Source: Gaiellaceae bacterium (GTDB lineage Bacteria; Actinomycetota; Thermoleophilia; Gaiellales; Gaiellaceae). From it: a DNA stretch of 64,000 bases. Numbering within the stretch: the first letter of the stretch is position 1; each line of letters starts with the position of its first letter. Both the position numbers and the translations under genes were made by a program. The notes beneath the pieces were generated by a model. It saw only the letters and a list, made by a program, of their open reading frames with translations, searched no databases and was not told where the DNA came from. This document shows, piece by piece, positions 32,423 to 50,871 of this stretch. Location of the stretch: contig DASTQA010000051.1 in assembly GCA_035762005.1 (NCBI GenBank), forward strand, positions 633 through 64,632. The letters are read 5' to 3'.

Positions 32423-33625
32423 ATGAACCTCGACGAGCTGCTGGCACGCGTCATCGACGCGGGAGGAAGCGACCTTCACCTCAAGGTGTCGTCTCCGGCC
32501 ATGGTCCGCGTGGACGGCGACCTCCACCCGCTCGAGGAGCGCCTCCTCACCGACTCCGACCTCGACACGGTCCTCCTGCTCGTGACCGAGCGCTCCCCCG
32601 CGAAGCGGGAGCAGTTCTACGAGAGCGGCGACCTGGACACGTCCTACCTGGCCGACGGGACCGGCCGCTTCCGCGTGAACGGCTTCCGCCAGCGCGGGTC
32701 GATCTCGTTCGCCTTCCGCTTCGTGCCCAAGGAGATCCCGAGCTTCGAGAAGCTCGGCCTCCCGCCGGGCGTCGGCAAGCTCGCCGAGGAGCACCGCGGG
32801 CTCGTCCTCGTCACCGGCGCGACCGGCTCGGGGAAGTCGACGACGCTCGCGGCGATGGTCAACTCGATCAACCGGCGGCGCAAGCAGCACATCGTCACGA
32901 TCGAGGACCCGATCGAGTTCATCCACGACGACTGGCTCTCGATCGTGAACCAGCGCGAGGTGGGCCTCGACACCGAGTCGTTCAGGCAGGCCCTGCGCCG
33001 TGTGCTGCGGCAGGACCCCGACGTCATCCTCATCGGCGAGCTCCGCGACGAGGAGACCGCCCAGACAGCCCTCCAGGCGGCCGAGTCCGGCCACCTCGTC
33101 TTCTCGACGCTCCACACGCTCGACGCCGCCGAGACGATCGGCCGGCTCGTCGAGTTCTTCCCGCCCCAGAAGCAGCAGATGATCCGCGAGATCATCGCCG
33201 GCGTCCTCCGCGGCGTCGTCAGCCAGCGGCTGCTCCCGCGCAAGGACGGCGGCCGGGTGGCGGCCGTCGAGGTGATGGCCGTGACGGCGCGGATCGCCGA
33301 CCTGATCCGCGAGCCGGAGAAGACGCACGGGATCACGGAGGCGATCGAAGAAGGCGCCTACCACCTCATGCAGAGCTTCTCCCAGCACCTCGTCGAGCTC
33401 GTCGTCGAGGACGTCGTCGACCTCGACGTCGCGGCGGCGGCCGCGACGAACCGGCACGACTTCGAGATCGCGGTCGACCAGGCCCTTCGCCGCAAGCGCG
33501 TCGCCGAGGACGCCCCGTCCGCCGAGGGCGGCTCCCCGGGCGGCGACGGGGACGACGCGGCCGTTCCCTCCGACCACGACGAGCACCCCGTGCCCGGCCT
33601 GCGGCTCGCGTCCTCGGACCGATGA
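32423..33625 (+). CDS. pilT: type IV pilus retraction ATPase PilT (copy 1)
   Basis: MNLDELLARVIDAGGSDLHL, Walker A GATGSGKSTT, EDPIEF, GELRD, AESGHLVFSTLHT. Confidence 0.9.
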   Translation: MNLDELLARVIDAGGSDLHLKVSSPAMVRVDGDLHPLEERLLTDSDLDTVLLLVTERSPAKREQFYESGDLDTSYLADGTGRFRVNGFRQRGSISFAFRFVPKEIPSFEKLGLPPGVGKLAEEHRGLVLVTGATGSGKSTTLAAMVNSINRRRKQHIVTIEDPIEFIHDDWLSIVNQREVGLDTESFRQALRRVLRQDPDVILIGELRDEETAQTALQAAESGHLVFSTLHTLDAAETIGRLVEFFPPQKQQMIREIIAGVLRGVVSQRLLPRKDGGRVAAVEVMAVTARIADLIREPEKTHGITEAIEEGAYHLMQSFSQHLVELVVEDVVDLDVAAAAATNRHDFEIAVDQALRRKRVAEDAPSAEGGSPGGDGDDAAVPSDHDEHPVPGLRLASSDR

Positions 33626-35061
33626 GGCGCGCCCTCCCGGGCATCGTGGCCGTGCTCGTGGCGGCCGTCCTGCCGGCGACCGCCCCGGCCCAGGCCCCGC
33701 TGCCGAGCTTCACGCAGCCGAACGGGCCCGGGTCGATCACCGTGCCGTTCAACCTCTCGACGCCGCCGGACCGCCCGGCCGTCCGCTCGTACGAGCAGCT
33801 GCTCGCCCTCTGGCAGAGCGCAGGTCAGGCGTACGGCGTGCCCTGGCAGGTCCTCGCGGCGATCAACGAGATCGAGTCGAACTTCGGCCAGAACATGGGC
33901 CCCAGCTCGGCGGGGGCGCTCGGCTGGATGCAGTTCATCCCCTCGACCTGGATGCGCTGGGGCACGGACGCGGACGGCGACGGCGTCGCCGACCCGTGGG
34001 ACCCCGAGGACGCGGTCTTCTCGGCCGCGCGGTACCTCGCCGCGGCGGGCGCGCACGAGGACCTCGAGCGAGCGATCTACGCCTACAACCACGCCCAGTG
34101 GTACGTGGACGACGTGCTCGAGCGCGCCGCGCTCTTCGGGGACGACCCGCTCGCGCCCGGCACGGGGCGGCTCGTCTTCGCCGCCTCGGACGTCGAGCGC
34201 AGGCTCCGGGACGCGCGCCGCGACGTGGCGCGCCTCGGGCGCGCCCTGAGGACGCTCGACCGTCGGGCCGCAGGCCTGGGCGAGGCCCGCCTTCCCCTCG
34301 AGCGCCGCGCGGGCGACCCGTCGCTCGGCGAGGCCGAGTTCCGGGAGATCCAGGCACGCCTCGAGCGCGCCGACGCGTTCGAGGCGACCGCGGCCGAGCG
34401 GCGCGCCCGGCTCGACTCCCGGCTCGCCCGGGCCGTCAGTCGCGTCGAGGCGCTCGAGCAGGAGCGGGGCGCCGCCGCGCTCTCCGCGCCGGCCCCGTGG
34501 GCGGGCGGAGTCCCCGAGCCGATCGGCGGCTACGTCTTCCCGGTCGGGGGCGGGCCCGAGGCCGTCTCGGTCGCCCACGTCCACCACGACTACCCCGCGG
34601 CCGACATCGCCGCGCCCGAGGGCTCGCCGCTCTACGCGCTCGCCGACGCGACGGTCGTCGCGACGTTCCCCGAGGACGAGGGCAGGTGCGGAATCGGCCT
34701 GAAGCTGCTCGTCGAGGGCGGCGCCGCGTTCATCTACTGCCACCTCTCGTACCTCGAGCCGCACGTCGTCCCCGGGGCGGCGCTCGCCGCCGGCGCCCCC
34801 GTCGGCCTCGTGGGCTCGACCGGGAACTCGACCGGCCCCCACCTCCACCTCGCCTTCGACCCGGCTCTCGCCTACCCGCAGGAGGAGCCGTGGTTCGAGC
34901 GGTTCGCCGGCACGGCGTTCAGCTGGCAGGACGCGCCCACCCCGGAGCGCCCGCGCGCCGCGCGGCCCCGGCCGGCGCGCGCGACCGCGCCGGCCGCGGT
35001 GCCTCCCGAGCGGGTCTTCCGGGTCGTGCGAACGCGCGTCGTCCGCTTCTCGCGCGGCTAG
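33622..35061 (+). CDS. secreted lytic transglycosylase - coiled coil - M23 (LytM) peptidase fusion
   Basis: Signal peptide. Transglycosylase-like region AAINEIESNFGQN...GWMQFIPSTW. Arg/Ala/Glu-rich linker. M23 motifs HHDYPAADI and GNSTGPHLHL. Its ATG overlaps the pilT-1 stop. Confidence 0.8.
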   Translation: MRRALPGIVAVLVAAVLPATAPAQAPLPSFTQPNGPGSITVPFNLSTPPDRPAVRSYEQLLALWQSAGQAYGVPWQVLAAINEIESNFGQNMGPSSAGALGWMQFIPSTWMRWGTDADGDGVADPWDPEDAVFSAARYLAAAGAHEDLERAIYAYNHAQWYVDDVLERAALFGDDPLAPGTGRLVFAASDVERRLRDARRDVARLGRALRTLDRRAAGLGEARLPLERRAGDPSLGEAEFREIQARLERADAFEATAAERRARLDSRLARAVSRVEALEQERGAAALSAPAPWAGGVPEPIGGYVFPVGGGPEAVSVAHVHHDYPAADIAAPEGSPLYALADATVVATFPEDEGRCGIGLKLLVEGGAAFIYCHLSYLEPHVVPGAALAAGAPVGLVGSTGNSTGPHLHLAFDPALAYPQEEPWFERFAGTAFSWQDAPTPERPRAARPRPARATAPAAVPPERVFRVVRTRVVRFSRG

Positions 35062-35071
35062 GCGGTCGGTC

Positions 35072-35099
35072 TTGACCTTTGCTGCGAGGATGCCGATGG
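35072..35099 (+). promoter_or_regulatory. sigma-28-type promoter candidate (TTGA-N16-GCCGATGG)
   Basis: The box ends 7 nt upstream of ATG 35107, which implies a leaderless or near-leaderless mRNA. Confidence 0.4.
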
Positions 35100-35106
35100 A
35101 AGGGGC

Positions 35107-36012
35107 ATGGCGGCCCGACTGACCATGCTCCTGCCCAGGCTCGCGGCGCTCGTCGTGATCTGGCTGCTCGCGGCCGCGAGCTTCACGTTCGCGGCCGGGG
35201 GCGAGGAGCCCGTCCCGAGCGCCGGCGAGGCTGCTGCCGGACCGGAGAGGCCGGAGGCGCTCGTCGTGCCCGACGTCCGCCGCCAGGCCTACGTCTTCGC
35301 CAAGGGCATCCTCCAGGACGCCGGCTTCGCCTGGCGCGTCGAGGGGCCGGTCGACGGCTACTCCGCGAACACGGTCGCCGTCCAGACCCCCGCGCCGGGC
35401 GCGAAGGTCGTCGACAACGGTGCCCCGACGATCGTCCTCCGCCTCGAGCGGAACGGCGACTACCCCGAGCGCGGCCTGCCCGAGAACCGCTCGCGGGGCG
35501 GGGGCACGCCGGTCGTCCTCCTCCGCGACTGGCTGCGCGCCCATCCGTCGGTCCCCGCCGCCGAGACCGAGGCCATGGAGACCGCTCCCGCCGAGACCGC
35601 GCCCGCGCCGACGACGACCGAGGCGCCGCCCGCGACGACCGAGGCGCCGCCCGCGACGACCGCGGCGGAGCCGCCGCCGGCCCCCGACGACGAGCAGGCC
35701 TACCGCCGCCCCGCCTTCGAGGTCGAGGGGGCTCCGCGCGAGCCGGCCGACGAGATGCCGCTCCCCGAGCGGGCCCGCATGCTCGAGCGCCGGCTGCTCG
35801 GCGCCGGGAAGCCCGGCAGGAGCCTCGTTCGCTTCTGGCTCTACCAGCACTCCTGGATCGTCACCGGCGCCCGCTTCGGGTGGAAGGACGGAGACGACGC
35901 GCTCCGGATCCTCGTCCGCCTCGACGAGCGCCTCGAGCGGCGCTACGGCTTCGGCGGCAAGAGCGCCGTGACCGCGCGCCGCGCGCTCGCGGACGTCCGC
36001 AGGCTGGGCTGA
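35107..36012 (+). CDS. membrane-anchored PASTA-domain protein
   Basis: N-terminal TM/signal sequence. PASTA-like unit VPDVRRQAYVFAKGILQDAGF...VVDNGAPTIVLRL. Pro/Thr/Ala linker with a tandem repeat. Conserved-looking C-terminal domain. Confidence 0.65.
   Translation: MAARLTMLLPRLAALVVIWLLAAASFTFAAGGEEPVPSAGEAAAGPERPEALVVPDVRRQAYVFAKGILQDAGFAWRVEGPVDGYSANTVAVQTPAPGAKVVDNGAPTIVLRLERNGDYPERGLPENRSRGGGTPVVLLRDWLRAHPSVPAAETEAMETAPAETAPAPTTTEAPPATTEAPPATTAAEPPPAPDDEQAYRRPAFEVEGAPREPADEMPLPERARMLERRLLGAGKPGRSLVRFWLYQHSWIVTGARFGWKDGDDALRILVRLDERLERRYGFGGKSAVTARRALADVRRLG
35614..35661 (+). repeat. 21-bp tandem repeat (2.3 copies) inside the PASTA-protein linker
   Basis: ACGACCGAGGCGCCGCCCGCG occurs twice exactly, then partially. 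Encodes TTEAPPATTEAPPATT. Confidence 0.85.
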
Positions 36013-36590
36013 TGGCCGGGCGGCGGCTCGCCGGGGGCCCGAGGGGCGAGGCCGGCTACACGCTGATCGAGCTGCTCGCGGTCCTCGCCATCTTCCTGAC
36101 GATCGCGACGGCGCTGACGACCCTCTTCGTCTCGGGCTCGCGGGCAGAGCTGGACGCGAACCGCCGCTTCGAGGCCCAGCAGAACGCCCGCGTCGCGCTC
36201 GACAGGCTGCGGCGGGAGCTCCACTGCTCGAGCGGGGTCACGAACCTCGACGGGAGCGCGCTCACGCCCGTTCCGGTGGCCGCGATCCGCGTCACGCTGC
36301 CCTCGCACTGCCCGACCGCGAACGGCGCCACGGCCGTCGTCGACTACGAGACGGTCGCCGCGGGCACGGGGCGCTGGAAGCTGACCCGGACCCAGAACGG
36401 GGGCACGGCGATCCCCCTCGCGGACTACGTCGTGCAGGGCACCGTGTTCACGTACACGGCCCAGTCCGCCACCTCGCGCGCGCTCCTCCACGTCGACCTG
36501 CCGGTGAACGTCGACCCGAACGAGGGATGGAAGGCCTGGCGCCTCGTTGACGACATCGTCCTCAGGAACACCCTCCGCCAGGACCCCTAG
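36012..36590 (+). CDS. prepilin-type minor pilin (PilW/FimT-like)
   Basis: ATG at 36012 overlaps the upstream stop. Class III signal GEAG/YTLIELLAVLAIFL with Glu at +5. Confidence 0.8.
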   Translation: MAGRRLAGGPRGEAGYTLIELLAVLAIFLTIATALTTLFVSGSRAELDANRRFEAQQNARVALDRLRRELHCSSGVTNLDGSALTPVPVAAIRVTLPSHCPTANGATAVVDYETVAAGTGRWKLTRTQNGGTAIPLADYVVQGTVFTYTAQSATSRALLHVDLPVNVDPNEGWKAWRLVDDIVLRNTLRQDP

Positions 36591-36608
36591 GCGGAGCGGA
36601 CCGACGAC

Positions 36609-38105
36609 ATGACCTTGCGGCAACTCCTCACACGCCAGGACGGCATGACGCTCATCATGGCGGTGGGCATCCTCGGCATGCTCTCGCTGACGGGCGCGAC
36701 GCTCATCTACTACTCGAGCACGAACGCGCGCAGCGTCGAGTACTCCGTGCGCAACGCGAGCGCCTACGACCTCGCCGAGGCCGGCATCGACGAGATGATG
36801 GCGGTGCTCTCGAAGCCGACGAACAACGCGCTCCTGCCCGACGTCCTGCCGGAGACGACGCACGAGTACGACAGCGGGACGGTCACGTGGTCGGGCACGC
36901 TCGACCAGCTCACGCAGACGTGGTCGCTCACCTCGACGGGGAGGATCGACAACCCGACCGGGACGGCGACGAGCGACGTCACGCGCACGCTGACCGCGAA
37001 GGTGCCGGTGACGCCGACGCTCACCCAGCCGCTCAACAACCCGGCGTGGAACTACATCTACGCGACGAGCACGGGCCAGCCGTGCGACATGACGGTCGCC
37101 CAGAACGTCTCGGGCTCCTCGCGCCTCTACGTCGAGGGCAATCTCTGCCTGGAGAACAACGTCGCGATCACGCAGACGTCGCTCCTCGTCAAGGGCAACC
37201 TCGACCTCGCGAACAACGCGCGCGTCGGCGCCGCGACGAGCATGAGCACCCGCGTCGAGACCTACGTGGGCGGCAGCTGCCGCTACGGCGGCGGCTCGTG
37301 GGCGACCCCGTGCAGCGGGAACCAGGACGCCCGGCGCATCTACTCGAAGATGGGCGCTCCCGACTACACGGTCGGCGTCAACACCTCTGTCCCCGTCATC
37401 GCCGCGCCCTCGGCCGACGTCTCGGCTTGGTACGCGAACTCCATCCCGGGCCCCTCGCTCGATTGCAGCTCGGCCAACGGCGCCCGCAGCGGCACGCCGC
37501 CGACGTGGGACAACGACGGCGTCCGCAACAACAGCGTGCCGCTGTTCGAGCTGACCGCCGCCTCCTCGTACACCTGCCGCGTCGGGCCGGCCAACAACCC
37601 GACGGGCGAGCTCTCGTGGAACGCGGCGACGAAGGTGCTGACCGTGTACGGCACGATGTTCATCGACGGCAGCCTCACGATCACGAACGGGACCCTCAAC
37701 TCCTACAACGGCCAGGCGACGATCTACCTCTCCGGGACGCTCTACCTCGGGAACAACACGAAGCTCTGCGGCGGCGTCTCGGGCTCGAGCTGCGACTTCG
37801 GGGCCTGGAACCCGAACACGGAGATGCTCACGTTCGTGACCGGCGGGAGCGGCGGGCTCGCGGGGACCGACGTGGGGATCCTCGTCGCGAACAACGGCCA
37901 GTTCCAGGGCGGCCTCTTCTCGCAGTACGCGGTCCGCTTCACGAACAACTCGCGCTCGGACGGGCCGATCGTCGGCTCGACGATGATCTTCGACAACAAC
38001 GTCACGAACGACCAGTTCCCGACCATCACGACGGTGCCGGTCGGCATGCCGGGCAACCCGGCCGTCTACGCCCAGCCGAACCCGCCGCAGCTCTACAGCG
38101 GCTAA
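36609..38105 (+). CDS. PilX-N-terminal-like pilus-associated protein with large Asn/Thr/Gly-rich beta-helix-like domain
   Basis: N-terminus QDGMTLIMAVGILGMLSLTGATLIYY. Repeats of the GNLxLxNN type. Visibly lower GC and Asn-rich compared with its neighbours. Confidence 0.7.
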   Translation: MTLRQLLTRQDGMTLIMAVGILGMLSLTGATLIYYSSTNARSVEYSVRNASAYDLAEAGIDEMMAVLSKPTNNALLPDVLPETTHEYDSGTVTWSGTLDQLTQTWSLTSTGRIDNPTGTATSDVTRTLTAKVPVTPTLTQPLNNPAWNYIYATSTGQPCDMTVAQNVSGSSRLYVEGNLCLENNVAITQTSLLVKGNLDLANNARVGAATSMSTRVETYVGGSCRYGGGSWATPCSGNQDARRIYSKMGAPDYTVGVNTSVPVIAAPSADVSAWYANSIPGPSLDCSSANGARSGTPPTWDNDGVRNNSVPLFELTAASSYTCRVGPANNPTGELSWNAATKVLTVYGTMFIDGSLTITNGTLNSYNGQATIYLSGTLYLGNNTKLCGGVSGSSCDFGAWNPNTEMLTFVTGGSGGLAGTDVGILVANNGQFQGGLFSQYAVRFTNNSRSDGPIVGSTMIFDNNVTNDQFPTITTVPVGMPGNPAVYAQPNPPQLYSG

Positions 38106-38130
38106 CGTCCCCGCCCTCCCGCGCCGATAG
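38103..38130 (+). promoter_or_regulatory. sigma-28-type promoter candidate (TAAC-N16-GCCGATAG) for pilD
   Basis: GCCGATAG at 38123-38130, 9 nt upstream of ATG 38140. Confidence 0.45.
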
Positions 38131-38139
38131 CTCGTAAGG

Positions 38140-38892
38140 ATGAACGTCGCCCTGGCCGTCGCCGCGCTCCCGCCCGCGCTCGCGCTCGGGAGCTTCCTGA
38201 ACGTCGTCGCCGCCCGCCTCCCCGAGGGCCGCTCGCTCGTCTCGCCGCCCTCGGCCTGCGGCTCCTGCGGGACGCGCATCTCCTGGCGCGACAACCTCCC
38301 CGTGCTCTCGTACGTGCTCCTGCGCGGACGCTGCCGGCACTGCGGCGTCCGGATCGGCGCGCGCTACGTCGCCGTCGAGCTCGGCACGGCGCTCCTCGTC
38401 GCCGCCTGCTTCCTCCACCTCGGCCTCACGGCGGACGCGTTCGTCGCCTCCGTCTTCGTCTCGGTCCTCGTCGTCCTCTCGGCGATCGACGTCGAGCGGC
38501 GGATCCTGCCGGACGCGATCGTGCTGCCCGCGACGGCGGTCGTCCTCACGGCGCAGCTCGCCCTCCACCCCGGGCAGGCGCTCGAATGGGTGCTGGCCGC
38601 GCTCGGCGCCTCGCTCTTTCTCTTCCTCGCGCTCCTCGCCTACCCCAGGGGCATGGGGATGGGGGACGTGAAGCTCTGCCTCCTGCTGGGGGCGATGCTC
38701 GGCGCCGAGGTTCTCCCCGCGCTCATGGTCGGCATGCTGGCCGCCCTCGTTCCCTCGGCGGTCCTCTTCGTCCGGCACGGCGCCGCGGCGCGGAAGATGT
38801 TCATCCCCTTCGGGCCCTTCCTCGCCTTCGGCGGCGTCGTCGCCCTCTTCGCCGGCGAGGCGCTCCTCGACGCCTACCTCGGCAGCTTCTAG
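38140..38892 (+). CDS. pilD: prepilin peptidase (A24 family)
   Basis: CxxC...CxxC N-terminal region (CGSCGTRI...CRHCG). Catalytic Asp motifs SAIDVERRILPD and GMGDVKL. Confidence 0.9.
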   Translation: MNVALAVAALPPALALGSFLNVVAARLPEGRSLVSPPSACGSCGTRISWRDNLPVLSYVLLRGRCRHCGVRIGARYVAVELGTALLVAACFLHLGLTADAFVASVFVSVLVVLSAIDVERRILPDAIVLPATAVVLTAQLALHPGQALEWVLAALGASLFLFLALLAYPRGMGMGDVKLCLLLGAMLGAEVLPALMVGMLAALVPSAVLFVRHGAAARKMFIPFGPFLAFGGVVALFAGEALLDAYLGSF

Positions 38893-38920
38893 GCCGGCTC
38901 GTCAACCCCCCTCTCAGGGA

Positions 38921-38940
38921 TATCGGCGCCGAGCCGATAA
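38921..38940 (+). promoter_or_regulatory. inverted repeat TATCGGC-N5-GCCGATA containing a sigma-28-type -10 box (GCCGATAA) for pilB
   Basis: GCCGATAA at 38933-38940, 9 nt upstream of GTG 38950. The left arm is the reverse complement, so a box also faces the opposite direction. Confidence 0.45.
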
Positions 38941-40800: not shown

Positions 40801-41064
40801 CTAGGTGACGTCGCAGCCGAGGTACTCGAGGATCGTGACGGTCTCGCGGATGAAGGTGTCCGCTTCCTCGCGCGTGCCGAAGCGGTAGGGGCCCGGGCGG
40901 AGCGGCTCGACGACGAGGCCGTCGACGGGGTAGACCTCGCACTCCACGAGGTAGCCCGCGTCGTCCTCGACGTAGCGCATGCGCACGAGCTCGCGGCTGT
41001 CCTTGCGCGCCGAGCGGAGGGCGAGCTCCTGCGGCTCGTTCGCCGGCTCTCCGAGCCTGCTCAT
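40801..41064 (-). CDS. hypothetical 87-aa protein
   Basis: MSRLGEPANEPQEL...TILEYLGCDVT. Balanced composition. Its ATG overlaps the upstream gene's stop (ATGA). Confidence 0.5.
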   Translation of the reverse strand: MSRLGEPANEPQELALRSARKDSRELVRMRYVEDDAGYLVECEVYPVDGLVVEPLRPGPYRFGTREEADTFIRETVTILEYLGCDVT

Positions 41065-42029: not shown

Positions 42030-42422
42030 CTAGCAGGCGCCCTGCGTGATGTCCGCTGCCGGGCCGGCCTTGTTGTACGTGGCCTGGCCGACGACGCTCT
42101 GGATGCAGTACGACGCGGCGGTCGCGCGGACGACGTTGACGTTCTTGATGCCGGCGTCGTAGGACGCCTTCAGGACGGCGGACGTCAGACCGACGTAGCC
42201 GCTCGCGGTGTGGTCGGCGTAGTACGCCTCCACGCCGGGGATCGCAGCCCGCACGTTCGCCTGGGCCGCCGAGTTCTCCGCGCGAGCGCGGAAGCTCAAG
42301 TACGACGGGATGGCGATCGCGAGCAGGATGCCGATGATGATGATCACGACGAGGAGCTCGATGAGGGTGAAGCCGCCCTCTTTCTCCGAGACCGTGATCC
42401 GCTGCCTGAGCCTCTGAATCAT
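42030..42422 (-). CDS. pilA: type IV major pilin
   Basis: 130 aa. MIQRLRQRITVSEKEGG/FTLIELLVVIIIIGILLAIAIPSYL. C-terminal Cys pair (C105, C130). Strong SD GGAAGGAG upstream. Confidence 0.92.
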   Translation of the reverse strand: MIQRLRQRITVSEKEGGFTLIELLVVIIIIGILLAIAIPSYLSFRARAENSAAQANVRAAIPGVEAYYADHTASGYVGLTSAVLKASYDAGIKNVNVVRATAASYCIQSVVGQATYNKAGPAADITQGAC

Positions 42423-42539: not shown

Positions 42540-42567
42540 TTTAGCGACCGCCGCCCGCTGCCGATAG
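42540..42567 (+). promoter_or_regulatory. sigma-28-type promoter candidate (TTTA-N16-GCCGATAG) for pilT-2/pilMNO
   Basis: GCCGATAG at 42560-42567, 17 nt upstream of ATG 42585. Confidence 0.45.
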
Positions 42568-43802: not shown

Positions 43803-44870
43803 GTGGCCAGGCAGGTCGTCGGCCTCAAGATCGGCGCCTCGGGCCTCACGGCCGCGCGGCTCGCCCTGAACGGCTCCGCCGAGCTCCTCCAGCTCGCCGA
43901 GTCGCCGCTGCCCGAGGGCGTGATCGCGGGCGGCGAGGTGCGCGACGTTGCGCGCCTCGCGGCCGCGCTGAAGGAGTTCTTCAAGCGCCACAAGCTGCCG
44001 AAGCGGAACGTCCGGATCGGCGTCGCGAACAACCGCATCGGCGTCCGCACGGTCGACATCGCCGGCATCGAGGACGAGAAGCAGCTCGCGAACGCCGTGC
44101 GCTTCCGGGCCCAGGAGGCGCTCCCGATCCCGATCGACCAGGCCGTCCTCGACTTCCACGTCCTCTCGGAGGGCACCGGCCCCGACGGGCAGCCCGTCCG
44201 GCGCGTCCTCCTCGTCGTCGCCTACCGCGACCTCGTCGCCGGCTACGCCGAGGCCTGCCGCCTCGCGGGCGTCCGCCTCGCCGGGGTCGACCTGGAGGCC
44301 TTCGCCCTCCTGCGCGCGCTCACCCCCGCCGGCCCCGCGCCCGCGCCCGGGAGCGAGCGGAGCGCGCTCGTCGCCGTCTCCCTCGGCTCCGAGCGCTGCG
44401 TGCTCGCCGTCTCCGACGGCTGGAGCTGCGAGTTCACCCGCATCCTCGACTGGGGCGGGAACGCGCTCACGATCGCCGTCGGCCGGACCCTCGAGGTCGA
44501 GATCGGGGAGGCGGAGCGCGTGAAGGTCGAGCTCGGCCTCCAGGGGGAGACCGTCCCGCCGGGGCTGACGCCCGAGCGGGCGGTCCAGGCGCGCGAGGCG
44601 CTCGCGACGAGCCTCCAGGGCTTCGGGCGCGAGCTCGTGTCCTCGCTCCAGTTCTACCAGGGCCAGCCCGACTCGCTCGGCATCCGCGAGATCGTCATCG
44701 CCGGCGGCACGGCCCGCCTGCCCGGCCTCGCGAGCGAGCTCCAGCGCCTCGTCGGCGTCCCCGTCCGGGTCGGGGACCCGCTCGTCGGGGTCGCCGTCGG
44801 CAAGAAGCTCAAGGGCGAGGCGCCGGACGCCTCGCACGCGGTTCCGATCGGCCTCGGCCTGGCGGTCTAG
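43803..44870 (+). CDS. pilM: type IV pilus assembly protein PilM (actin-like ATPase fold)
   Basis: VVGLKIGASGLTAA...NRIGVRTVDI...EALPIPIDQAVLDF. 355 aa. Precedes pilN and pilO. Confidence 0.85.
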   Translation: MARQVVGLKIGASGLTAARLALNGSAELLQLAESPLPEGVIAGGEVRDVARLAAALKEFFKRHKLPKRNVRIGVANNRIGVRTVDIAGIEDEKQLANAVRFRAQEALPIPIDQAVLDFHVLSEGTGPDGQPVRRVLLVVAYRDLVAGYAEACRLAGVRLAGVDLEAFALLRALTPAGPAPAPGSERSALVAVSLGSERCVLAVSDGWSCEFTRILDWGGNALTIAVGRTLEVEIGEAERVKVELGLQGETVPPGLTPERAVQAREALATSLQGFGRELVSSLQFYQGQPDSLGIREIVIAGGTARLPGLASELQRLVGVPVRVGDPLVGVAVGKKLKGEAPDASHAVPIGLGLAV

Positions 44871-44873
44871 GCC

Positions 44874-45773
44874 ATGGTCGACCTGAACAAGGAGATCAAG
44901 CTCGGCGACCTCTTCCGCCGGCGCGCCAAGGAGCCCGAGCGGCCTGCCGGCGCGACGCCGCAGGAGGAGACGCCGAAGAAGGAGCGCCGGCCGCTCTTCG
45001 CCCGCGGCCGCCGGGAGGCGACCGCCGGCGAGCCGACGCCCGCCAAGGAGGCGAGGCCGAAGAAGGAGCGGCGCCGGCGCGGTGCGGGGAACCCCGCCGT
45101 CGAGCCGAGGCCCGCCGCCGAGCTGCCGTCGATCCCGCTGATGCGCGCGTTCGACCTCCTGCCGAAGGAGCCCGTGCGCGAGAAGGGCGGCCGCGCCGGC
45201 CTCGTCCGGCTGGGGATCGCCCTCCTCGGCATCCTCGTCGTCGGCGGGCTCGGCGGCGCCTACCTCTTCACGAGCTCCGGCGTCTCCTCGAAGCAGTCGG
45301 AGCTGGACGACCTGCGCGCGCAGCTCGCCGAGCTCGAGGTTCCGGCGGAGGCCCCCGCCGCCGGCGAGGCCGCGCTCGCGGGCGAGGGCATGGCGCGGAA
45401 GACCGCGCTCTCGAGCGCGCTCGCGAGCCGGATCGCCTGGGACCGGGTGCTGCGCGAGGTCTCGCTCGTCGTCCCCGAGGGCGTCTGGCTCACCCAGCTC
45501 GCCGGGACGACGCCGAACGGCGGCTCGGCCGGGACGGGCGCCCCCGCGCCGCCCGCCGCGCCGACCGGGTCGACCTCGCCCAACTCGCTCTCGGTGACCG
45601 GCTTCGCGACGAGCCAGGAGAGCGTCGCCGTGCTCCTCTCGCGCCTCGCCGCCATCCCCGAGCTGACGGCGGTGCAGCTCCAGTCGAGCACCCGGAACGA
45701 CGCGGAGTTCGGGCCGGTCTACTCCTTCTCGATCCTGACCGCGGTCGATCCGCTGGGGAGGCCGGCCTCGTGA
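44874..45773 (+). CDS. pilN: PilN-like protein with about 95-aa Lys/Arg/Glu/Pro-rich N-terminal extension
   Basis: TM LVRLGIALLGILVVGGLGGAYLF, coiled coil, C-terminal SLSVTGFATSQESVAVLLSRL typical of PilN. Confidence 0.75.
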   Translation: MVDLNKEIKLGDLFRRRAKEPERPAGATPQEETPKKERRPLFARGRREATAGEPTPAKEARPKKERRRRGAGNPAVEPRPAAELPSIPLMRAFDLLPKEPVREKGGRAGLVRLGIALLGILVVGGLGGAYLFTSSGVSSKQSELDDLRAQLAELEVPAEAPAAGEAALAGEGMARKTALSSALASRIAWDRVLREVSLVVPEGVWLTQLAGTTPNGGSAGTGAPAPPAAPTGSTSPNSLSVTGFATSQESVAVLLSRLAAIPELTAVQLQSSTRNDAEFGPVYSFSILTAVDPLGRPAS

Positions 45774-46417
45774 AGCGCCAGGTGCCGATGTCGCTCGTCG
45801 CCGTGCCGGCGCTCCTCCTCGTGGCCGCGATCGGGTTCTTCCTGCTCGTCAAGCCGCAGATGGACGAGAGCGCCGCGCTCGACGAGCGGATCGCCGAGCT
45901 GCAGGGCAAGGTCGACGTCGCGCTGGCCGCCGAGAGCCGCACCGCGCCCGAGGAGCGGATCGAGGTCGCGGACCTCTTCCGGCTCACGAAGGCGATGCCC
46001 GACTCGACCGACATGGCCGGCATGATCCTCGAGCTGGACGGCGTGGCGGAGTCCGCCGGCGTCGACTTCATCTCGATCACGCCCACGCCCCCGGTGGCCA
46101 GGGGCAGCGGCTTCCAGGCAGTGCCGATCCAGGTCACGTTCGAGGGCAACTACTACGACCTGACGGACTTCCTCTTCCGGCTGCGGAACCTCGTCGTCGT
46201 GCGCGACGGCGAGCTCCAGGCGGGCGGGCGCCTTTTCACGCTCGACGCGCTCGACATCCAGAAGGGGAGCCAGGGGCTGCCCCAGGTGCAGGCCGTGATG
46301 ACGATCAGCGCCTACCGGTTCGACCCGGCCGCGACCGTGCCGGCGACGGCCGCGCCGCCGGCGTCCACGACCGCGACCCCGCCGGCGACGGACCCGGCGA
46401 CGCTCGGAGCGGGCTAG
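45770..46417 (+). CDS. pilO: PilO-like pilus assembly protein
   Basis: GTG overlaps the pilN stop. TM plus coiled coil, and VPIQVTFEGNYYDLTDFLFRLRNL motif. Confidence 0.75.
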   Translation: MKRQVPMSLVAVPALLLVAAIGFFLLVKPQMDESAALDERIAELQGKVDVALAAESRTAPEERIEVADLFRLTKAMPDSTDMAGMILELDGVAESAGVDFISITPTPPVARGSGFQAVPIQVTFEGNYYDLTDFLFRLRNLVVVRDGELQAGGRLFTLDALDIQKGSQGLPQVQAVMTISAYRFDPAATVPATAAPPASTTATPPATDPATLGAG

Positions 46418-46419
46418 CG

Positions 46420-47043
46420 ATGGCAAGGCGAAGCGCAGCCGACATCCAGAAGGCGAAGGAGGCGAAGCAGAAGAAGCTCATCCTCGTCCTGCTGCCCTTC
46501 TTCCTCGTCCTCGCCGCCTGGCAGGGCCCGAAGACCTACAAGTCGCTCTTCGCCCGGCCTGCGCCCGAGGGCGCGACCGCCGTGCAGACGACGACCCCGC
46601 CGACGGCGACGACGCCCGGCGCCGTCACCCCGGCGCCCGGAGCGGCCGCTCCGGCGGCCGCGGGCCTCGTCGACAGCGACCCGCTCCCCGAGGCCGCGAG
46701 CGACCAGCTCATCTCCTTCAGCCGGTTCGCCCCTCGCGACCCGTTCCTGCCCCCGGCCGGGCGAGTGCCGGAGCCGTCGGCCGACGACCCGGCCGCGGCG
46801 CTCTCCTCCGCGCAGATCGAGGTGAACGGTGCCTCCGAGTCCGTGAGCGTGAACGGCACCTTCCCCGCGAGCGACCCGATCTTCCAGCTCGTGTCGGTGA
46901 GCGAGACGCGCGTGGTCGTCACGCTCACGAGCGGCGCCTTCGAGGGCGGCGAGGCGAACGTCCAGATCGCCGTCGGCGAGCGGGTCGACCTGGTCGCCGA
47001 CGACGGCACGAGGTTCACCGTCACTGTCCTCTCCGTCGGCTAG
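46420..47043 (+). CDS. membrane-anchored hypothetical protein, last gene of the pilMNO unit
   Basis: N-terminal TM (LILVLLPFFLVLAAW), Pro/Ala/Thr linker, about 70-aa beta-type C-terminal domain. Occupies the pilP-equivalent position, but no homology is claimed. Confidence 0.55.
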   Translation: MARRSAADIQKAKEAKQKKLILVLLPFFLVLAAWQGPKTYKSLFARPAPEGATAVQTTTPPTATTPGAVTPAPGAAAPAAAGLVDSDPLPEAASDQLISFSRFAPRDPFLPPAGRVPEPSADDPAAALSSAQIEVNGASESVSVNGTFPASDPIFQLVSVSETRVVVTLTSGAFEGGEANVQIAVGERVDLVADDGTRFTVTVLSVG

Positions 47044-47088
47044 GCGCCTGCTCCCGACCCGTCCGAGGGGCCAGTTGGGTTGGCCCGC

Positions 47089-47232
47089 GTGCGCCTGCTC
47101 GTCACCCGCCGCGAGGTCCGCTGCACGGGCCGTCCGACCGCCGTCCCTCCCGGAGTCGACGCGGCCCGTGCTCCTGGAGGACGGCTCCGTGCTCGTCCAC
47201 GCGGACGCGCGCGGCTCCAGGCCGCTGAACGG
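47089..47232 (+). pseudogene. decayed duplicate of the 5' end of nucS
   Basis: About 144 nt align with nucS 47731-47878 at roughly 85-90% identity by eye, with 3 small indels that break the frame (VRLLVTRREVRCTGRPTAV versus MRLIVARCEVRYTGRLTAV). Confidence 0.8.
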
Positions 47233-47277
47233 CGACTCGACGAAGGCCCTCGCGGGCGCAAGGGTGACCCGCCGCTC

Positions 47278-47601
47278 TCACTCCCAGATGAAGAGCTCGC
47301 CGAGGAGCACGAACGCGCAGAAGGCGCCGATCAGGATGGGCAGCGCGAGCAGGAGCCAGCGCTCGCCCTTCAGCAGGGAGGCGATCGCCGCCCCCGCGCC
47401 GCCGATCCCCGCGCCGAGGCCCAGGATCACCGCGGTCGGGACGAGCCACGCGCCCCAATCCGTGTCCCGGACGTCCCACACGCTCAGGAGCGCGACCAGC
47501 CCGATCACGGCGACGGCGACAGCCGAAAGGTCGAGCGCCAGCCTGGCCAGTCGCCCGTGACCCTCGAGGTGCGGTGCAGGCATAACGGTCATCAGGCTCA
47601 C
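47278..47601 (-). CDS. small 3-TM membrane protein
   Basis: 107 aa with three hydrophobic segments. Lies between the nucS fragment and intact nucS. Confidence 0.5.
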   Translation of the reverse strand: MSLMTVMPAPHLEGHGRLARLALDLSAVAVAVIGLVALLSVWDVRDTDWGAWLVPTAVILGLGAGIGGAGAAIASLLKGERWLLLALPILIGAFCAFVLLGELFIWE

Positions 47602-47730
47602 CGTCCTTTCTCCCTCAGCATCGGTCCTCGCGGGACCACCCGCATCCGCGCTTCAACGGACTCGCTGGGGGCGGACTACTGAGCGCGTGACGGTCTGGAC
47701 ACGTCCGAAACGGGCGGTACGGTCGCACGC

Positions 47731-48414
47731 ATGCGCCTCATCGTCGCCCGCTGCGAGGTCCGCTACACGGGCCGTCTGACCGCCGTCCTCCCGGACTCGA
47801 CGCGGCTCGTGCTCCTGAAGGAGGACGGCTCCGTGCTCGTCCACGCGGACGCGGGCGGCTACAAGCCGTTGAACTGGATGACGCCGCCCACGGTCGTCGA
47901 GGAGGACGGGGACCCGCCCGCGCGGATCGTCGTGCGCAAGCGGAGCAGCCGCTCGGAGGACCGCCTCGAGATCGAGATCCGCGAGCTCCTGAGCGACGTC
48001 CGTCACGACATGGGCGAGTCGGCCGCGCTCGAGAAGGACGGCGTCGAGCGCGACCTCCAGGCCGAGCTCGCGGCGCGTCCCGAGGTTCTCGGCGAGGGTC
48101 TCCGTCTCCATACCCGCGAGTGGCGCACCGACATCGGCCCGGTCGATCTCATGTGCAGGGACGCGGACGGCGGCTGGGTCGCCGTCGAGATCAAGCGGGT
48201 GGCGACGATCGAGGCGGTCGAGCAGCTCGCCCGCTACCTCGAGCGGATCAGGCTCGACCCGGCGACTGCCGGCTGCGCCGGCATCCTCGCCGCCCAGCGG
48301 TTCAAGCCGCAGGCGCAGACGCTGGCCGCCTCCCGGGGCCTCCGTTGCGTCGAGGTCGACCTCGAGTCGCTGCGCGGGGTGCGCGAGCCCGAGCTCACCC
48401 TCTTCGTCTCCTGA
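47731..48414 (+). CDS. nucS: mismatch-specific endonuclease NucS (EndoMS)
   Basis: 227 aa. N-terminal half-barrel domain and C-terminal RecB-like nuclease motifs (GPVDLMCRD...VAVEIKR). Confidence 0.9.
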   Translation: MRLIVARCEVRYTGRLTAVLPDSTRLVLLKEDGSVLVHADAGGYKPLNWMTPPTVVEEDGDPPARIVVRKRSSRSEDRLEIEIRELLSDVRHDMGESAALEKDGVERDLQAELAARPEVLGEGLRLHTREWRTDIGPVDLMCRDADGGWVAVEIKRVATIEAVEQLARYLERIRLDPATAGCAGILAAQRFKPQAQTLAASRGLRCVEVDLESLRGVREPELTLFVS

Positions 48415-48806
48415 CGCGCCTGCCGCTCACCCGCGGCGCGCGCCGCCTCGTCTACGCGCTCCTCGCGGTCGGGCTCCTCGCCGCGATCGTCGTCCAGTAC
48501 GCGCGCCACGACGTCGGCTGGTGGCCTCCGGTGGCCTTCGGCCTCGGCCCGGACGTCGCGCTCCTCTTCGGCGCCGGTCGCGGTCTCGAGCGCGGGCAGC
48601 TCCATCCGCGCGCCGTCCCGCTCTACAACGCGCTGCACCGCTTCTGGGGCCCGCTCGCCCTCGCCGTCCTCGCGGTCGCGGCCGGGCTGCCCGCCGCCTG
48701 GCTCGTGGGGGCGCTCGCCTGGGCCGCGCACGTCGCGGTCGACCGCGCGGTCGGCTACGGCCTGCGCACGCGGGACGGCTTCCAGCGTCCCGACCGGTCC
48801 GGCTAG
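48411..48806 (+). CDS. DUF4260-like membrane protein (start uncertain)
   Basis: Credible sequence begins right after the nucS stop (LTRLPLTRGARRLVYALLAVGLL). It contains YNALH and HVAVDRAVGYGLR. The only start-like codons here are CTG, so the start is unresolved. Confidence 0.5.
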   Translation: MTRLPLTRGARRLVYALLAVGLLAAIVVQYARHDVGWWPPVAFGLGPDVALLFGAGRGLERGQLHPRAVPLYNALHRFWGPLALAVLAVAAGLPAAWLVGALAWAAHVAVDRAVGYGLRTRDGFQRPDRSG

Positions 48807-49594
48807 AGGCCGGTCGCCTCGTCGAAGATCGAGGTGACCCGCGCCCACTCCTTGTAGGGCGTCTCGGGCTCGCGGACGACGACGGTGAGCCGCTTCACGG
48901 CTCGCCCCGAGGTCCCGGTCCCGCTCGCCACCTGGCTCCAGGCGATGTACGTGTCGACGCGGTAGCTCTTGCCGTCGGCCCCGGCGGTCGTCTTCGTGGG
49001 CACGAGGCTCGTGCACGGCGAGCCGCCGAAGGAGCAGGAGGCGATCGCGACGCGCTCCGTCAGCGTCACCGTGGCGCCGGCGTTGTGCGTGCCGGGCACC
49101 GTTCCGTCCCCGCCGCGCTCGACGGTCCAGGTCGTCGTCCCCGCGCCGGCGGTGACGATCAGGACCTCGCCCGCGATCGTGATCCGGAACTCGCCGGCGG
49201 CCGGGAAGCCCGTCGCCGAGGCGACGGTGAGGGTCGTGCCGGTCTGGGTCAGGCCGCCGGTCACGCTCGTCGTGACGGCGCCGTCGTTCGCGTAGGCCTC
49301 GTGGGCGGCGTAGACGTCCGGATCCTCGGCGGCGACGAGGGCCGCGACCTCGCCCGCGTCGAGCCCGAGCGTCTCGTACTTCACGGCTCGGAAGCGCTCC
49401 ATCTCCGCATCGGCCAGGGCGCCGGCGGTCGTGATCGTGCTCGCCCGCCGGAGCTGGACGAGCCCCGACTGGAAGAGGGCGAAGACGGCGAGGACGCCGA
49501 TCATCATGATCGTCATCGCGGCGACGAGCTCGACCATGCCGAAGCCCCGCTCGTCGCGGCCGCGCGCGAAGAGAAGTCGGCTCGACGCGGACAC
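48803..49594 (-). CDS. prepilin-type minor pilin (PilV-like)
   Basis: GTG start. Class III signal DERG/FGMVELVAAMTIMMIGVLAV with Glu at +5. 263 aa. Confidence 0.75.
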   Translation of the reverse strand: MSASSRLLFARGRDERGFGMVELVAAMTIMMIGVLAVFALFQSGLVQLRRASTITTAGALADAEMERFRAVKYETLGLDAGEVAALVAAEDPDVYAAHEAYANDGAVTTSVTGGLTQTGTTLTVASATGFPAAGEFRITIAGEVLIVTAGAGTTTWTVERGGDGTVPGTHNAGATVTLTERVAIASCSFGGSPCTSLVPTKTTAGADGKSYRVDTYIAWSQVASGTGTSGRAVKRLTVVVREPETPYKEWARVTSIFDEATGL

Positions 49595-49601
49595 CGCCTC
49601 T

Positions 49602-49629
49602 TCATCGGCACCCCGCCCCGCCGGCTCAA
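49602..49629 (-). promoter_or_regulatory. sigma-28-type promoter candidate (TTGA-N16-GCCGATGA) for the minor pilin
   Basis: The box ends 7 nt upstream of GTG 49594. Its -35 tetramer is the same 4 bp used by the divergent pilC candidate. Confidence 0.4.
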
Positions 49630-49653
49630 GCGGAGGCCGGGGGATGCCGATTC
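49626..49653 (+). promoter_or_regulatory. sigma-28-type promoter candidate (TCAA-N16-GCCGATTC) for pilC
   Basis: GCCGATTC at 49646-49653, 9 nt upstream of ATG 49663. Confidence 0.4.
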
Positions 49654-49662
49654 CGGAGGCGT

Positions 49663-50871
49663 ATGGCGTCGTACGCCTATACGGCCATCAACGCTGCCGG
49701 CCTCGAGTCGACCGGCGAGATCCACGCGCCCGACGCGGGCGCCGCGCGGGAGGCGCTGCGCGTCCGCGGCCTCCTGGCCCTGAACCTGGACGAGCAGGCC
49801 GGAGGCGGGAAGGCGCAGGGCGTCGTCGTCAAGAAGGTCAAGGCGAAGTCGCTGCAGATCTTCTCCCGCCAGTTCGCCACGATGATCGAGGCCGGCCTGA
49901 ACGTCGTCACCGCGCTCGTCATCCTCGAGGAGCAGACGGAGGACAAGAAGCTCGCCGCCGTCATCGCCGAGCTGCGTGCGGACGTCGAGGGGGGCCTGCT
50001 GCTCTCCGAGGCGATGGCGCGCCACCCCCGGGTCTTCTCGCGCCTCTTCGTCGCCATGGTCGAGGCGGGCGAGGCGGCGGGGATCCTCGACGTCGTCCTC
50101 GACCGCGTCGCCTACCAGATCGAGAAGGAGACGAAGATCAAGCGGCGTGTCAGGGGCGCGATGATGTACCCGCTGATGGTGCTGTCGTTCGCGACACTCG
50201 TCCTGATCGGCATGCTCCTCTTCCTCGTCCCGATCTTCGTGGACATCTTCAAGTCGCTCGGCGGCGATCTGCCCCTCCTGACGAAGATCGTCGTCGCCGC
50301 GTCCGACTTCCTGCGCGAGCGCTTCTACATCGTCTTCCCGGCCATGGGCCTCCTCATCTGGGGCTTCTTCCGCCTGAAGAAGACCGAGAAGGGCCGTCGC
50401 GTCTGGGACGCGACCCGCATCCGCGCCCCCATGGGCATCGGCAAGGTGATCGTCAAGATCGGGATGGCGCGGTTCTCGCGCACGCTCTCGACGCTCGTCG
50501 CCGCGGGCGTCGACATCATCCGCTCGCTCGAGATCACCGCGAACACGTCGGGGAACAGCCTCATCGAGGACGCGACGATCGAGGTGAAGGAGCGCGTGAC
50601 CCAGGGCGTCCCCATCGCCGTCCCGCTCGCCGAGGCGGCGATCTTCCCGCCCATGGTCTCGCACATGGTGCGCGTCGGCGAGGAGACGGGGGAGCTCGAG
50701 AAGATGCTCTCGAAGATCGCCGACTTCTACGAGGACGAGGTCGACAGCGCGATCGCGAGCCTGACGTCGATCATCGAGCCGCTCATGATGATCCTCGTCG
50801 GCATCGTCGTCGGGGTGATCATCATCGCGATGTACCTCCCCATGTTCAAGCTCCTGACCCTGATCCAGTAG
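49663..50871 (+). CDS. pilC: type IV pilus platform protein PilC (GspF family)
   Basis: 402 aa. Duplicated GspF domains, three TM regions, typical N-terminus YTAINAAGLESTGEI. Confidence 0.9.
   Translation: MASYAYTAINAAGLESTGEIHAPDAGAAREALRVRGLLALNLDEQAGGGKAQGVVVKKVKAKSLQIFSRQFATMIEAGLNVVTALVILEEQTEDKKLAAVIAELRADVEGGLLLSEAMARHPRVFSRLFVAMVEAGEAAGILDVVLDRVAYQIEKETKIKRRVRGAMMYPLMVLSFATLVLIGMLLFLVPIFVDIFKSLGGDLPLLTKIVVAASDFLRERFYIVFPAMGLLIWGFFRLKKTEKGRRVWDATRIRAPMGIGKVIVKIGMARFSRTLSTLVAAGVDIIRSLEITANTSGNSLIEDATIEVKERVTQGVPIAVPLAEAAIFPPMVSHMVRVGEETGELEKMLSKIADFYEDEVDSAIASLTSIIEPLMMILVGIVVGVIIIAMYLPMFKLLTLIQ

Follow-up and report, generated by a model that had tools for sequence, protein, structure and literature searches.

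A putative type IVa pilus locus of a monoderm Gaiellaceae bacterium, divided into short units behind WhiG-type promoter motifs

Closest described systems

The interval 32423-50871 of a 64,000-nucleotide stretch of DNA (the window; positions 633 to 64,632 of contig DASTQA010000051.1, assembly GCA_035762005.1) is considered here. In all likelihood it encodes the sole type IVa pilus (T4aP) machine of a monoderm Gaiellaceae bacterium (Thermoleophilia, Actinomycetota), as read from its genes. The pili studied in Actinobacteria were all of the Tad type according to Pelicic 2019 (PMC6916266), and T4aP had already been seen in actinobacterial genomes (Denise et al. 2019, PMC6668835). In Rubrobacter radiotolerans, start-site mapping placed WhiG-type promoters in a type IV pilus cluster and before diguanylate cyclase (DGC) and phosphodiesterase (PDE) genes, and 12 of 20 predicted WhiG sites were confirmed (Schumacher et al. 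2021, PNAS, PMC8325347). The likeness to the present case is close: Rubrobacter is a basal, unicellular, non-flagellated actinobacterium whose pil cluster lacks a secretin and contains promoters of the TAAA/GCCGATAA type. The same promoter type also stands in front of DGC/PDE genes, of which one is linked to the pil cluster, as an HD-GYP gene (23870-25219) is here. The two differ in that three promoters head three units in Rubrobacter and nine motifs were found here, in that the gene order is split here, and in that Rubrobacter has the (RsiG)2-(c-di-GMP)2-WhiG switch, built on cyclic di-GMP (c-di-GMP), whereas the RsiG signature was not found here.

Type IV pili on the zoospores of Actinoplanes missouriensis are transcribed by FliA/WhiG and serve adhesion (Kimura et al. 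2019, as cited in PMC8325347 and bioRxiv 10.64898/2026.01.14.699351). As far as those accounts go, Actinoplanes, whose pili have been seen experimentally, shares with the Gaiellaceae bacterium a type IV pilus in a high-GC Gram-positive and a sigma factor of the FliA/WhiG family. It differs in being filamentous, sporangium-forming and flagellated with several FliA paralogues, whereas the Gaiellaceae genome has one WhiG-type sigma and no flagellar export gene. In the 2026 preprint (10.64898/2026.01.14.699351), the type IV pili of additional families are predicted to be under WhiG control; the words 'Gaiella' and 'Thermoleophilia' are absent from the preprint's text, and a full-text literature search for Gaiella together with type IV pili returned nothing relevant.

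The monoderm T4aP of Clostridia and Streptococcus sanguinis likewise lack a secretin and PilP and comprise clustered genes for PilB, PilC, PilD, PilM/N/O, PilT and several pilins (PMC6916266). They belong to another phylum, and the PilO of Firmicutes is enlarged by an extension speculated to handle the wall (PMC6916266), whereas the Gaiellaceae PilO is short (215 amino acids, aa) and is accompanied by separate genes for an SLT-M23 hydrolase, a PASTA protein and a 207-aa protein. In compact clusters of other Actinomycetota, PilB, PilT2, PilC, PilA, PilD and PilMNO are orthologous to those of the present locus at 40-64% identity, and PilT2 and PilB group with their compact-cluster counterparts in a tree of the ATPases. 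In Gaiellaceae the order of those clusters is broken up: pilC stands at the distal end, pilA is on the other strand, pilD-pilB come after the minor pilins, and PilT1 and accessory genes have been added.

A gene set for a retractable type IVa pilus

The window belongs to contig C51 of a 2.92-Mb assembly in 95 contigs, 96.5% complete. Because the window has a G+C content of 74%, raw lists of open reading frames (ORFs) are full of shadow frames, and frames were picked by a third-position G+C (GC3) of 0.93-0.99. Domains were assigned by Pfam and NCBIfam profile searches, with NCBIfam scores judged against the model cut-offs. By these profile matches the gene set for a retractable type IV pilus is complete and intact: a PilB-type ATPase, PilT, a single two-domain PilC, PilMNO, and PilD with its pilins. 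The pilins comprise three genes with the G/[FY]..[IV]E motif (the slash marks cleavage) and N_methyl, plus a fourth protein of the PilX_N type. Such a set makes it very probable that the locus specifies a monoderm, secretin-less, PilT-bearing T4aP and not a Tad, Com or type II secretion system (T2SS). The core genes are the following.

32423-33625, plus strand: pilT1, PilT-family retraction ATPase paralogue (TIGR01420, 429.7 bits, cut-off 319.1)
36012-36590, plus strand: minor pilin (minW), motif G/YTLIELL (Pfam N_methyl 7.1e-6; TIGR02532)
36609-38105, plus strand: PilX_N-type 498-aa protein (window copy matches DUF7305 only, 2e-4)
38140-38892, plus strand: pilD, prepilin peptidase and N-methyltransferase (A24_N_bact 8.9e-31, Peptidase_A24 1e-14)
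38950-40797, plus strand: pilB, extension ATPase (T2SSE 1.3e-131; N-terminal MshEN/GSPII_E_N, MshEN 1.6e-19)
42030-42422, minus strand: pilA, major pilin (N_methyl 6.6e-8; N-terminal matches to NF041775 and TIGR01710)
42585-43799, plus strand: pilT2, canonical PilT retraction ATPase (TIGR01420, 484.1 bits, cut-off 319)
43803-44870, plus strand: pilM (PilM_2 6.4e-31; TIGR01175, 144.7 bits, cut-off 133)
44874-45773, plus strand: pilN (Pfam PilN 1.1e-11)
45770-46417, plus strand: pilO (Pfam PilO 2.6e-9; 215 aa)
48803-49594, minus strand: PilV-like minor pilin (minV), motif G/FGMVELV (N_methyl 6.5e-5; TIGR02523, E = 1e-6, below cut-off)
49663-50871, plus strand: pilC, inner-membrane platform, 402 aa (T2SSF, two domains, 8e-61; NF052607, 393.7 bits)

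All components listed in the original prediction, which had been made from the letters of the DNA, were recovered at their positions by these searches, including two PilT paralogues that both exceed the TIGR01420 cut-off. Its PilX-like label for the 498-aa protein was borne out among the orthologues, of which 13 of 25 match PilX_N and 8 of 25 match DUF7305. The label "PilW-like" for the 36012 pilin was not sustained; the prepilin motif alone matches, PilW is not specifically supported, and the protein has weak N-terminal matches to ComGE/ComGF-like NCBIfam models. The name PilV-like for the product of 48803-49594 has weak support from TIGR02523, whose match stays below its cut-off.

PilA has a leader of about 17 aa, the motif G/FTLIELL and two C-terminal cysteines; its gene is single in the window and occurs as one to five tandem copies in relatives, with multi-copy variation seen among loci L042-L047, L051, L052, L055, L061, L068, L069 and L080. 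When the whole genome was searched for class III signals, three canonical prepilins were found, all of them in this locus. The 498-aa protein is Cys-rich with an Asn/Thr/Gly-rich body and without Glu5, and is a candidate tip or priming subunit; its identification as a Thermus ComZ-like or PilY1-like tip was tried and set aside, for a PDB profile search gave only chance matches to ice-binding beta-helices. Both PF00482 domains of PilC lie in a single ORF, and pilM, pilN and pilO, which encode the alignment subcomplex, are packed tightly downstream of pilT2.

The envelope is in keeping with this assignment. Neither the secretin family PF00263 nor the Omp85/BamA family PF01103 has a match in the whole 96.5%-complete genome, while each of them matches in six or seven diderm control genomes. 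Furthermore, no PilP family is detectable in the locus, the 207-aa protein and its 26 orthologues included. The lack of a secretin and PilP is what is expected for a monoderm T4aP, and Omp85 is absent as well. The genome-wide secretin search that had been proposed therefore left both the absence of PilQ and the monoderm envelope standing. The statement that the locus is not a Tad system stands for the locus itself, in which no CpaF/TadA, split TadB and TadC, or Flp was found, but the genome does have two loci of the Tad type (type IVc) on other contigs (G000:C10:1203-3405 and G000:C68:44790-48182). Each of these carries a CpaF-like ATPase followed by two single-domain T2SSF genes resembling TadB and TadC. 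By gene content, the organism is predicted to have one T4aP and two Tad systems.

PilB and the two PilT paralogues

Among proteins of solved structure, the best relative of PilB is Geobacter PilB at 451 bits, followed by Myxococcus PilB and Thermus PilF, with Vibrio GspE lower at 402 bits. PilT1 is closest to Thermus PilT (5fl3, 339 bits) and PilT2 to Geobacter PilT (5zfq, 411 bits), with PilU lower in both cases, so that the nearest solved relatives of both are PilT and not PilU, GspE or ComGA. PilT1 bears an acidic C-terminal extension of about 50 aa; PilT2 has the motif AVRNLIRQ, similar to AIRNLIRE. A maximum-likelihood tree was built from 67 ATPases, taken from the window, from eight loci of Gaiellaceae and 18 of other Actinomycetota families, and from the genome's own Tad systems. 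It resolved three well-supported groups, PilB, PilT2 (100/100) and PilT1 (100/99), with the Tad ATPases as a distant outgroup. PilT2 groups with the PilT encoded between pilB and pilC in other Actinomycetota (100/100), whereas PilT1 forms a separate Gaiellaceae clade (100/99) and, on this tree, is an old paralogue and not a recent copy of PilT2. The phylogenetic placement that had been suggested as a check thus sets all three clades apart from Tad, in a tree composed only of Actinomycetota sequences and the genome's own Tad ATPases.

Machines of this type had been said to be described only sparsely in high-GC Gram-positives, which is true of experiments but not of genomes. In an even sample of 401 Actinomycetota species, 298 have a PilT above the cut-off, as do 208 of 249 genera, so that a T4aP locus is not rare in the phylum; PilT is missing from its large-genome families. 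Outside any pilus locus, a stretch at G000:C82:13285-13551 is 37% identical to MshEN/GSPII_E_N residues 100-188 of PilB and possibly represents an independent domain like the one with which MshE binds c-di-GMP.

Promoter motifs and nine units

Strand changes alone divide the region into seven co-directional blocks, five of them with pilus genes, and the nine transcription units originally proposed are reached by counting conserved sigma-28-like motifs. In fact, a bipartite motif, T[TCA][AGT]A[GC]-N15-17-GCCGAT[A/G/T], precedes pilT1, the PASTA gene, pilD, pilB, a 292-aa gene, pilA, pilT2, the PilV-like pilin gene and pilC. The window contains 10 copies of GCCGATA, a number reached in 0 of 100 shuffles, where 3.7 would be expected, and seven of the ten copies lie in the locus. 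Except before pilA, the -10 box ends 8-18 nucleotides (nt) upstream of the start codon, so that the mRNAs are probably leaderless or nearly so.

32380-32407, plus strand: TAAAG-N17-GCCGATA before pilT1; the -10 box ends 15 nt before the ATG
35072-35098, plus strand: TTGAC-N15-GCCGATG before the PASTA gene; the TTGAC...GCCGATG arrangement also occurs in related loci
38103-38129, plus strand: TAAC-N16-GCCGATA before pilD; the -35 box overlaps the stop codon of the 498-aa gene
38933-38939, plus strand: GCCGATA -10 box before pilB, 10 nt before the start; -35 box weak
41977-41951, minus strand: TTAAG-N15-GCCGATA before the 292-aa gene
42490-42484, minus strand: GCCGATA box before pilA; between box and gene a 61-nt leader that contains a Shine-Dalgarno sequence
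42540-42566, plus strand: TTTAG-N15-GCCGATA before pilT2
49629-49603, minus strand: motif before the PilV-like pilin gene
49626-49652, plus strand: TCAAG-N15-GCCGATT before pilC; TCAAG-N15-GCCGATA in related loci

The promoter motifs of pilC and minV are divergent and have a central TCAA/TTGA in common. In the gap between pilD and pilB, a minus-strand GCCGATA (38927-38921) faces the pilB box, forming the imperfect palindrome ATATCGGCgccgaGCCGATA (window 38915-38940); this box is directed into pilD and has no gene to serve.

For comparison across genomes, a PilB search of species-representative genomes gave 429 relatives, of which the best 80 (66-92% identity), all metagenome-assembled genomes labelled Gaiellaceae, Gaiellales, Thermoleophilia or unclassified Actinomycetota, were taken as related loci. 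In these the boxes are fixed and the spacers variable. The strict pattern GCCGAT[AG] was counted as follows.

Before pilB: 75 of 78 loci
Before pilT2: 54 of 56 loci
Before the 292-aa gene: 22 of 22 loci
Before the PilV-like pilin gene: 25 of 25 loci
Before pilD: 56 of 72 loci
Before pilT1: 29 of 45 loci
Before copies of pilA: 51 of 94
Before pilC: 18 of 39 loci (46%)
Before the PASTA gene: 16 of 52 loci (31%)
Before pilM: 0 of 54 loci
Before pilN: 0 of 23 loci
Before pilO: 2 of 56 loci
Before the 36012 minor pilin gene (minW): 1 of 62 loci
Before the 87-aa gene: 2 of 68 loci

Conserved boxes of this kind give comparative support to the predicted promoters and are not proof of transcription.

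A WhiG-family sigma factor and its putative regulon

In both sequence and spacing, the motif equals TAAA / GCCGATAA, the consensus published for flagellar/WhiG promoters. The genome encodes one sigma factor of the FliA/WhiG family (G000:C73:13375-14055; TIGR02479, 293 bits, cut-off 190), whose neighbours are unrelated genes. FlhA was found neither in this genome nor in any of 41 Gaiellaceae genomes, 32 of which carry a FliA/WhiG sigma. With the nine GCCGAT motifs of the locus and this single sigma, the genome would have both the promoters and the sigma factor of a sigma-28 regulon. Across the genome, 25 sites of the motif have a good ORF start within 100 nt, and six of these sites belong to the pilus locus. 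The motif also precedes three HD_5 (HD-GYP) genes, one HAMP-GGDEF gene (on contig C75) and one sigma-70 gene; the HD_5 and GGDEF genes parallel the WhiG targets of Rubrobacter.

One of the HD_5 genes, encoding a membrane protein, lies in the window 8 kb from the pilus locus (23870-25219, preceded by TCAAG-N15-GCCGATA within the interval 23832-25219), and the other two are on contigs C18 and C1. Other genes upstream of the locus were noted as well. The sigma-70 gene at 26905-28155, 4 kb upstream, is full-length, comprises regions 1.1 to 4 and probably encodes the principal sigma factor or one resembling it. A polytopic membrane protein of 698 aa without a Pfam family (28320-30416, minus strand) follows TAAC-N15-GCCGATA (box 30431-30425), and its relatives sit between pilB and pilA in the more distant Gaiellaceae loci L056, L065, L067, L074 and L075. 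Its topology and an early 'PDEY' loop raised the idea of a GT-C pilin glycosyltransferase, for which Pfam gave no support (DUF2079, E = 0.4). Between this gene and pilT1 lies a cation-diffusion-facilitator gene (30817-32178) with three ZT_dimer stretches, where one is usual.

Accessory genes

Besides the pilus core, five further genes are conserved in the locus.

33622-35061, plus strand: SLT and M23 peptidoglycan hydrolase (SLT_2 1e-19, SLT 1.1e-12, Peptidase_M23 5.4e-14)
35107-36012, plus strand: membrane-anchored PASTA protein, 301 aa (PASTA 25.9 bits, cut-off 23.2)
40801-41064, minus strand: 87-aa cytoplasmic protein, downstream of pilA, no Pfam family
41061-41939, minus strand: 292-aa protein with an N-terminal membrane anchor and its own WhiG-type motif
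46420-47043, plus strand: 207-aa membrane protein, 40 orthologues

Specialised lytic transglycosylases serve other envelope-spanning machines. The SLT-M23 gene overlaps the pilT1 stop by 4 nt and follows pilT1 in most Gaiellaceae loci of at least 20 kb; its product has a Sec signal, an E-S transglycosylase motif and the H..D and HxH motifs of M23. In Streptococcus sanguinis, the Com pilus is extruded with the help of the hydrolase LytF (PMC13192262), which makes a wall-opening role for SLT-M23 plausible by analogy. In both cases a peptidoglycan hydrolase goes together with a monoderm type IV filament, co-expressed with it in the case of LytF and proposed to allow wall passage. LytF differs in being CHAP-type, in belonging to the competence regulon and in lying outside the pilus operon, while the two-activity SLT-M23 gene overlaps the stop of pilT1. 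The PASTA gene, conserved in position across Gaiellaceae, encodes a protein presumed to bind peptidoglycan.

The 207-aa protein consists of an N-terminal transmembrane helix, a Pro/Thr/Ala linker, the conserved motif SF.RF..DPF and, at the C terminus, a beta domain some 75 aa long, which AlphaFold2 models with a predicted local distance difference test (pLDDT) score of 90-97 beside a disordered linker. Its gene occupies the position after pilO that pilP holds in diderm loci. Homology with PilP was considered and rejected, as no Pfam family matched even at E <= 1 with 26 orthologues included and a PDB profile search gave nothing meaningful. Foldseek found no match at E <= 0.001 with a query that included the helix and the disordered linker, which weakens that test. 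The 87-aa protein, with invariant GPY.F and LGC motifs, is modelled as four strands followed by a helix (pLDDT 87); it had no PDB sequence match, and a fold search gave only insignificant WGR/PUR-like hits with E above 0.6. Since its gene is present in 67 related loci and the 292-aa gene has its motif in 22 of 22, both are members of the locus. The two hypothetical genes at 40801-41939 had been counted among interruptions of the locus, a view that therefore does not apply to them and holds for the insertion around nucS.

Conservation and rearrangement of the locus

Across about 48 Gaiellaceae loci of at least 20 kb, with PilB identities of 66-92%, both gene content and gene order are conserved. 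The first block runs pilT1, SLT/M23, PASTA, minor pilin, 498-aa gene, pilD and pilB; pilA (one to five copies), an optional 292-aa gene and the 87-aa gene follow on the opposite strand; and the last block runs pilT2, pilM, pilN, pilO, the 207-aa gene, an optional PilV-like pilin and pilC. In loci L031, L033, L036, L037 and L038 the flanking blocks (pilT1 to the 498-aa gene; pilA to pilC) are inverted relative to pilD-pilB, so that rearrangement breakpoints coincide with promoter-defined units. For comparison, 18 pilus loci from other Actinomycetota families were sampled, other Thermoleophilia included and Rubrobacter not among them. These show a compact pilB-pilT-pilC-pilA-pilD-pilMNO order; the SLT-M23, PASTA, 87-aa and 207-aa genes were absent within 10 kb in all of them, and the 292-aa gene was not found next to their pilT. 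The split layout and the accessory genes are thus features of the family, and the family-specific novelty, as far as these genomes tell, is the split order together with the five conserved accessory genes (SLT-M23, PASTA, 87-aa, 292-aa and 207-aa).

The non-pilus interval of this locus contains the following features.

47086-48806, mixed strands: non-pilus interval
47086-47232: decayed copy of the nucS 5' end, matching 47731-47878 over about 145 bp at 91% identity with 1-nt and 3-nt indels
47278-47601, minus strand: 107-aa membrane ORF between the nucS copies
47731-48414: nucS (Pfam NucS_N, NucS_C)
48426-48806: DUF4260 gene (Pfam DUF4260)

The decayed copy lies 640 bp upstream of intact nucS with a broken frame, and only the 107-aa ORF stands between them. 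Neither nucS nor this ORF was found in any of the 80 related loci, while DUF4260 recurs in at least four. By this comparison the nucS insertion is specific to the present lineage, and the duplication points to a local rearrangement in it.

Proposed mechanism and competing explanations

By analogy with the characterized families, PilD would cleave and methylate PilA, the two canonical minor pilins and probably the 498-aa protein. PilA would then be polymerized by PilB docked on PilC and held by PilM-PilN-PilO, and depolymerized by the two old PilT paralogues. The resulting fibre would be retractile, would need no outer-membrane parts and would serve adhesion, twitching or DNA uptake. SLT-M23, coupled to pilT1, together with the PASTA and 207-aa proteins would most likely open and organize the passage through peptidoglycan. 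The nine short units, seen as conserved motifs, would each stand behind a sigma-28/WhiG-type promoter read by the single FliA/WhiG-family sigma of the genome. The same sigma appears to drive HD-GYP and GGDEF genes of c-di-GMP turnover in a flagellum-less family, as in Rubrobacter.

Several observations weigh against this picture. The machine is known here from its genes, of which only three or four are minor-pilin-like, a smaller number than model T4aP systems have, and PilB scores below both equivalog cut-offs (PilB model TIGR02538, its best, 576.9 against 676 bits; GspE model 570.5 against 630). The promoters of pilB and pilA lack a clear -35, and the strict box precedes fewer than half of the pilC and PASTA orthologues. 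No exact match to the RsiG motif E(X)3S(X)2R(X)3Q(X)3D was found in any frame of the 96.5%-complete assembly by a motif search only, and the six matches to a relaxed motif all fall in non-coding frames; as the signature was not found, the c-di-GMP link to WhiG stays putative. Finally, profile and fold searches detected no relatives of known function for the 207-aa and 87-aa proteins, and the wall-crossing role that is most likely for SLT-M23, PASTA and the 207-aa protein is drawn from conserved linkage.

A filament mainly for DNA uptake, which binds DNA, retracts and hands it to ComEC, is an improbable alternative. PilT-dependent T4aP mediate transformation in Thermus and Neisseria, a ComEC is encoded in the genome, and the 36012 minor pilin has its faint ComGE/ComGF-like resemblance; but ComEC is near-universal, with matches in 10 of 14 control genomes, and the ComGA, ComGB and ComGC equivalogs all stay below their cut-offs (247 against 300, 139 against 240 and 37.7 against 75 bits). 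PilM/N/O and two PilT are moreover foreign to the ComM type, which agrees with the initial view that this is no competence pseudopilus, and DNA uptake as a function is compatible with the locus being a T4aP. Far less credible still is a T2SS-like pseudopilus that exports proteins such as the SLT-M23 hydrolase and builds no surface pilus. PilB does score nearly equally on the GspE and PilB models, and PilC reaches 367 bits on the GspF model (cut-off 424), but solved PilB structures outscore GspE by about 50 bits, the locus has two PilT-family ATPases, PilM_2, PilN and PilO, and secretin, GspL, GspM and GspC are missing; the SLT-M23 protein carries a Sec-type signal peptide of its own.

For the motifs, the competing account holds that GCCGAT marks a conserved signal of a different kind, for instance a repressor site, and that about five strand-defined operons are read from housekeeping promoters. 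The nine units are indeed known from motifs, the -35 elements are poor at several sites, and a scan for sigma-70 consensus and terminators is not discriminating at 74% GC. This account nevertheless has a low probability, lower than that of the DNA-uptake filament, given that the bipartite motif matches the consensus borne out by start-site mapping in Rubrobacter (PMC8325347), stands at a promoter-like distance before first genes only, keeps its boxes while its spacers have diverged across the family, and is accompanied by a WhiG orthologue conserved in a flagellum-less family.

Beyond the T4aP assignment, a stronger version was considered, in which SLT-M23, in translational coupling with PilT1, forms a dedicated wall-crossing module with the PASTA anchor and the 207-aa beta-domain protein, a module that cuts and lines a channel in the thick peptidoglycan in the stead of PilP/PilQ, with PilT1 as specialised partner, and the whole is the main regulon of a WhiG lacking flagella and RsiG. 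This would be a possibility worth stating, though a doubtful one.

Significance for the Gaiellaceae

The locus is an ordinary monoderm T4aP under a known type of sigma control, and what is new is an example in an unstudied family, not a new kind. The passage of a monoderm pilus through the wall has so far been a matter of speculation (Pelicic 2019, PMC6916266), and SLT-M23, PASTA and the 207-aa protein are family-conserved candidates for it. In a family devoid of flagella, the apparent re-use of a flagellar-type sigma for pili and for enzymes of c-di-GMP turnover adds breadth to a principle already published. In the description of Gaiella occulta, the group is reportedly non-motile. Gaiellaceae are abundant and almost uncultured actinobacteria of soil and subsurface, for which a conserved retractile pilus would imply surface motility, adhesion or DNA uptake.

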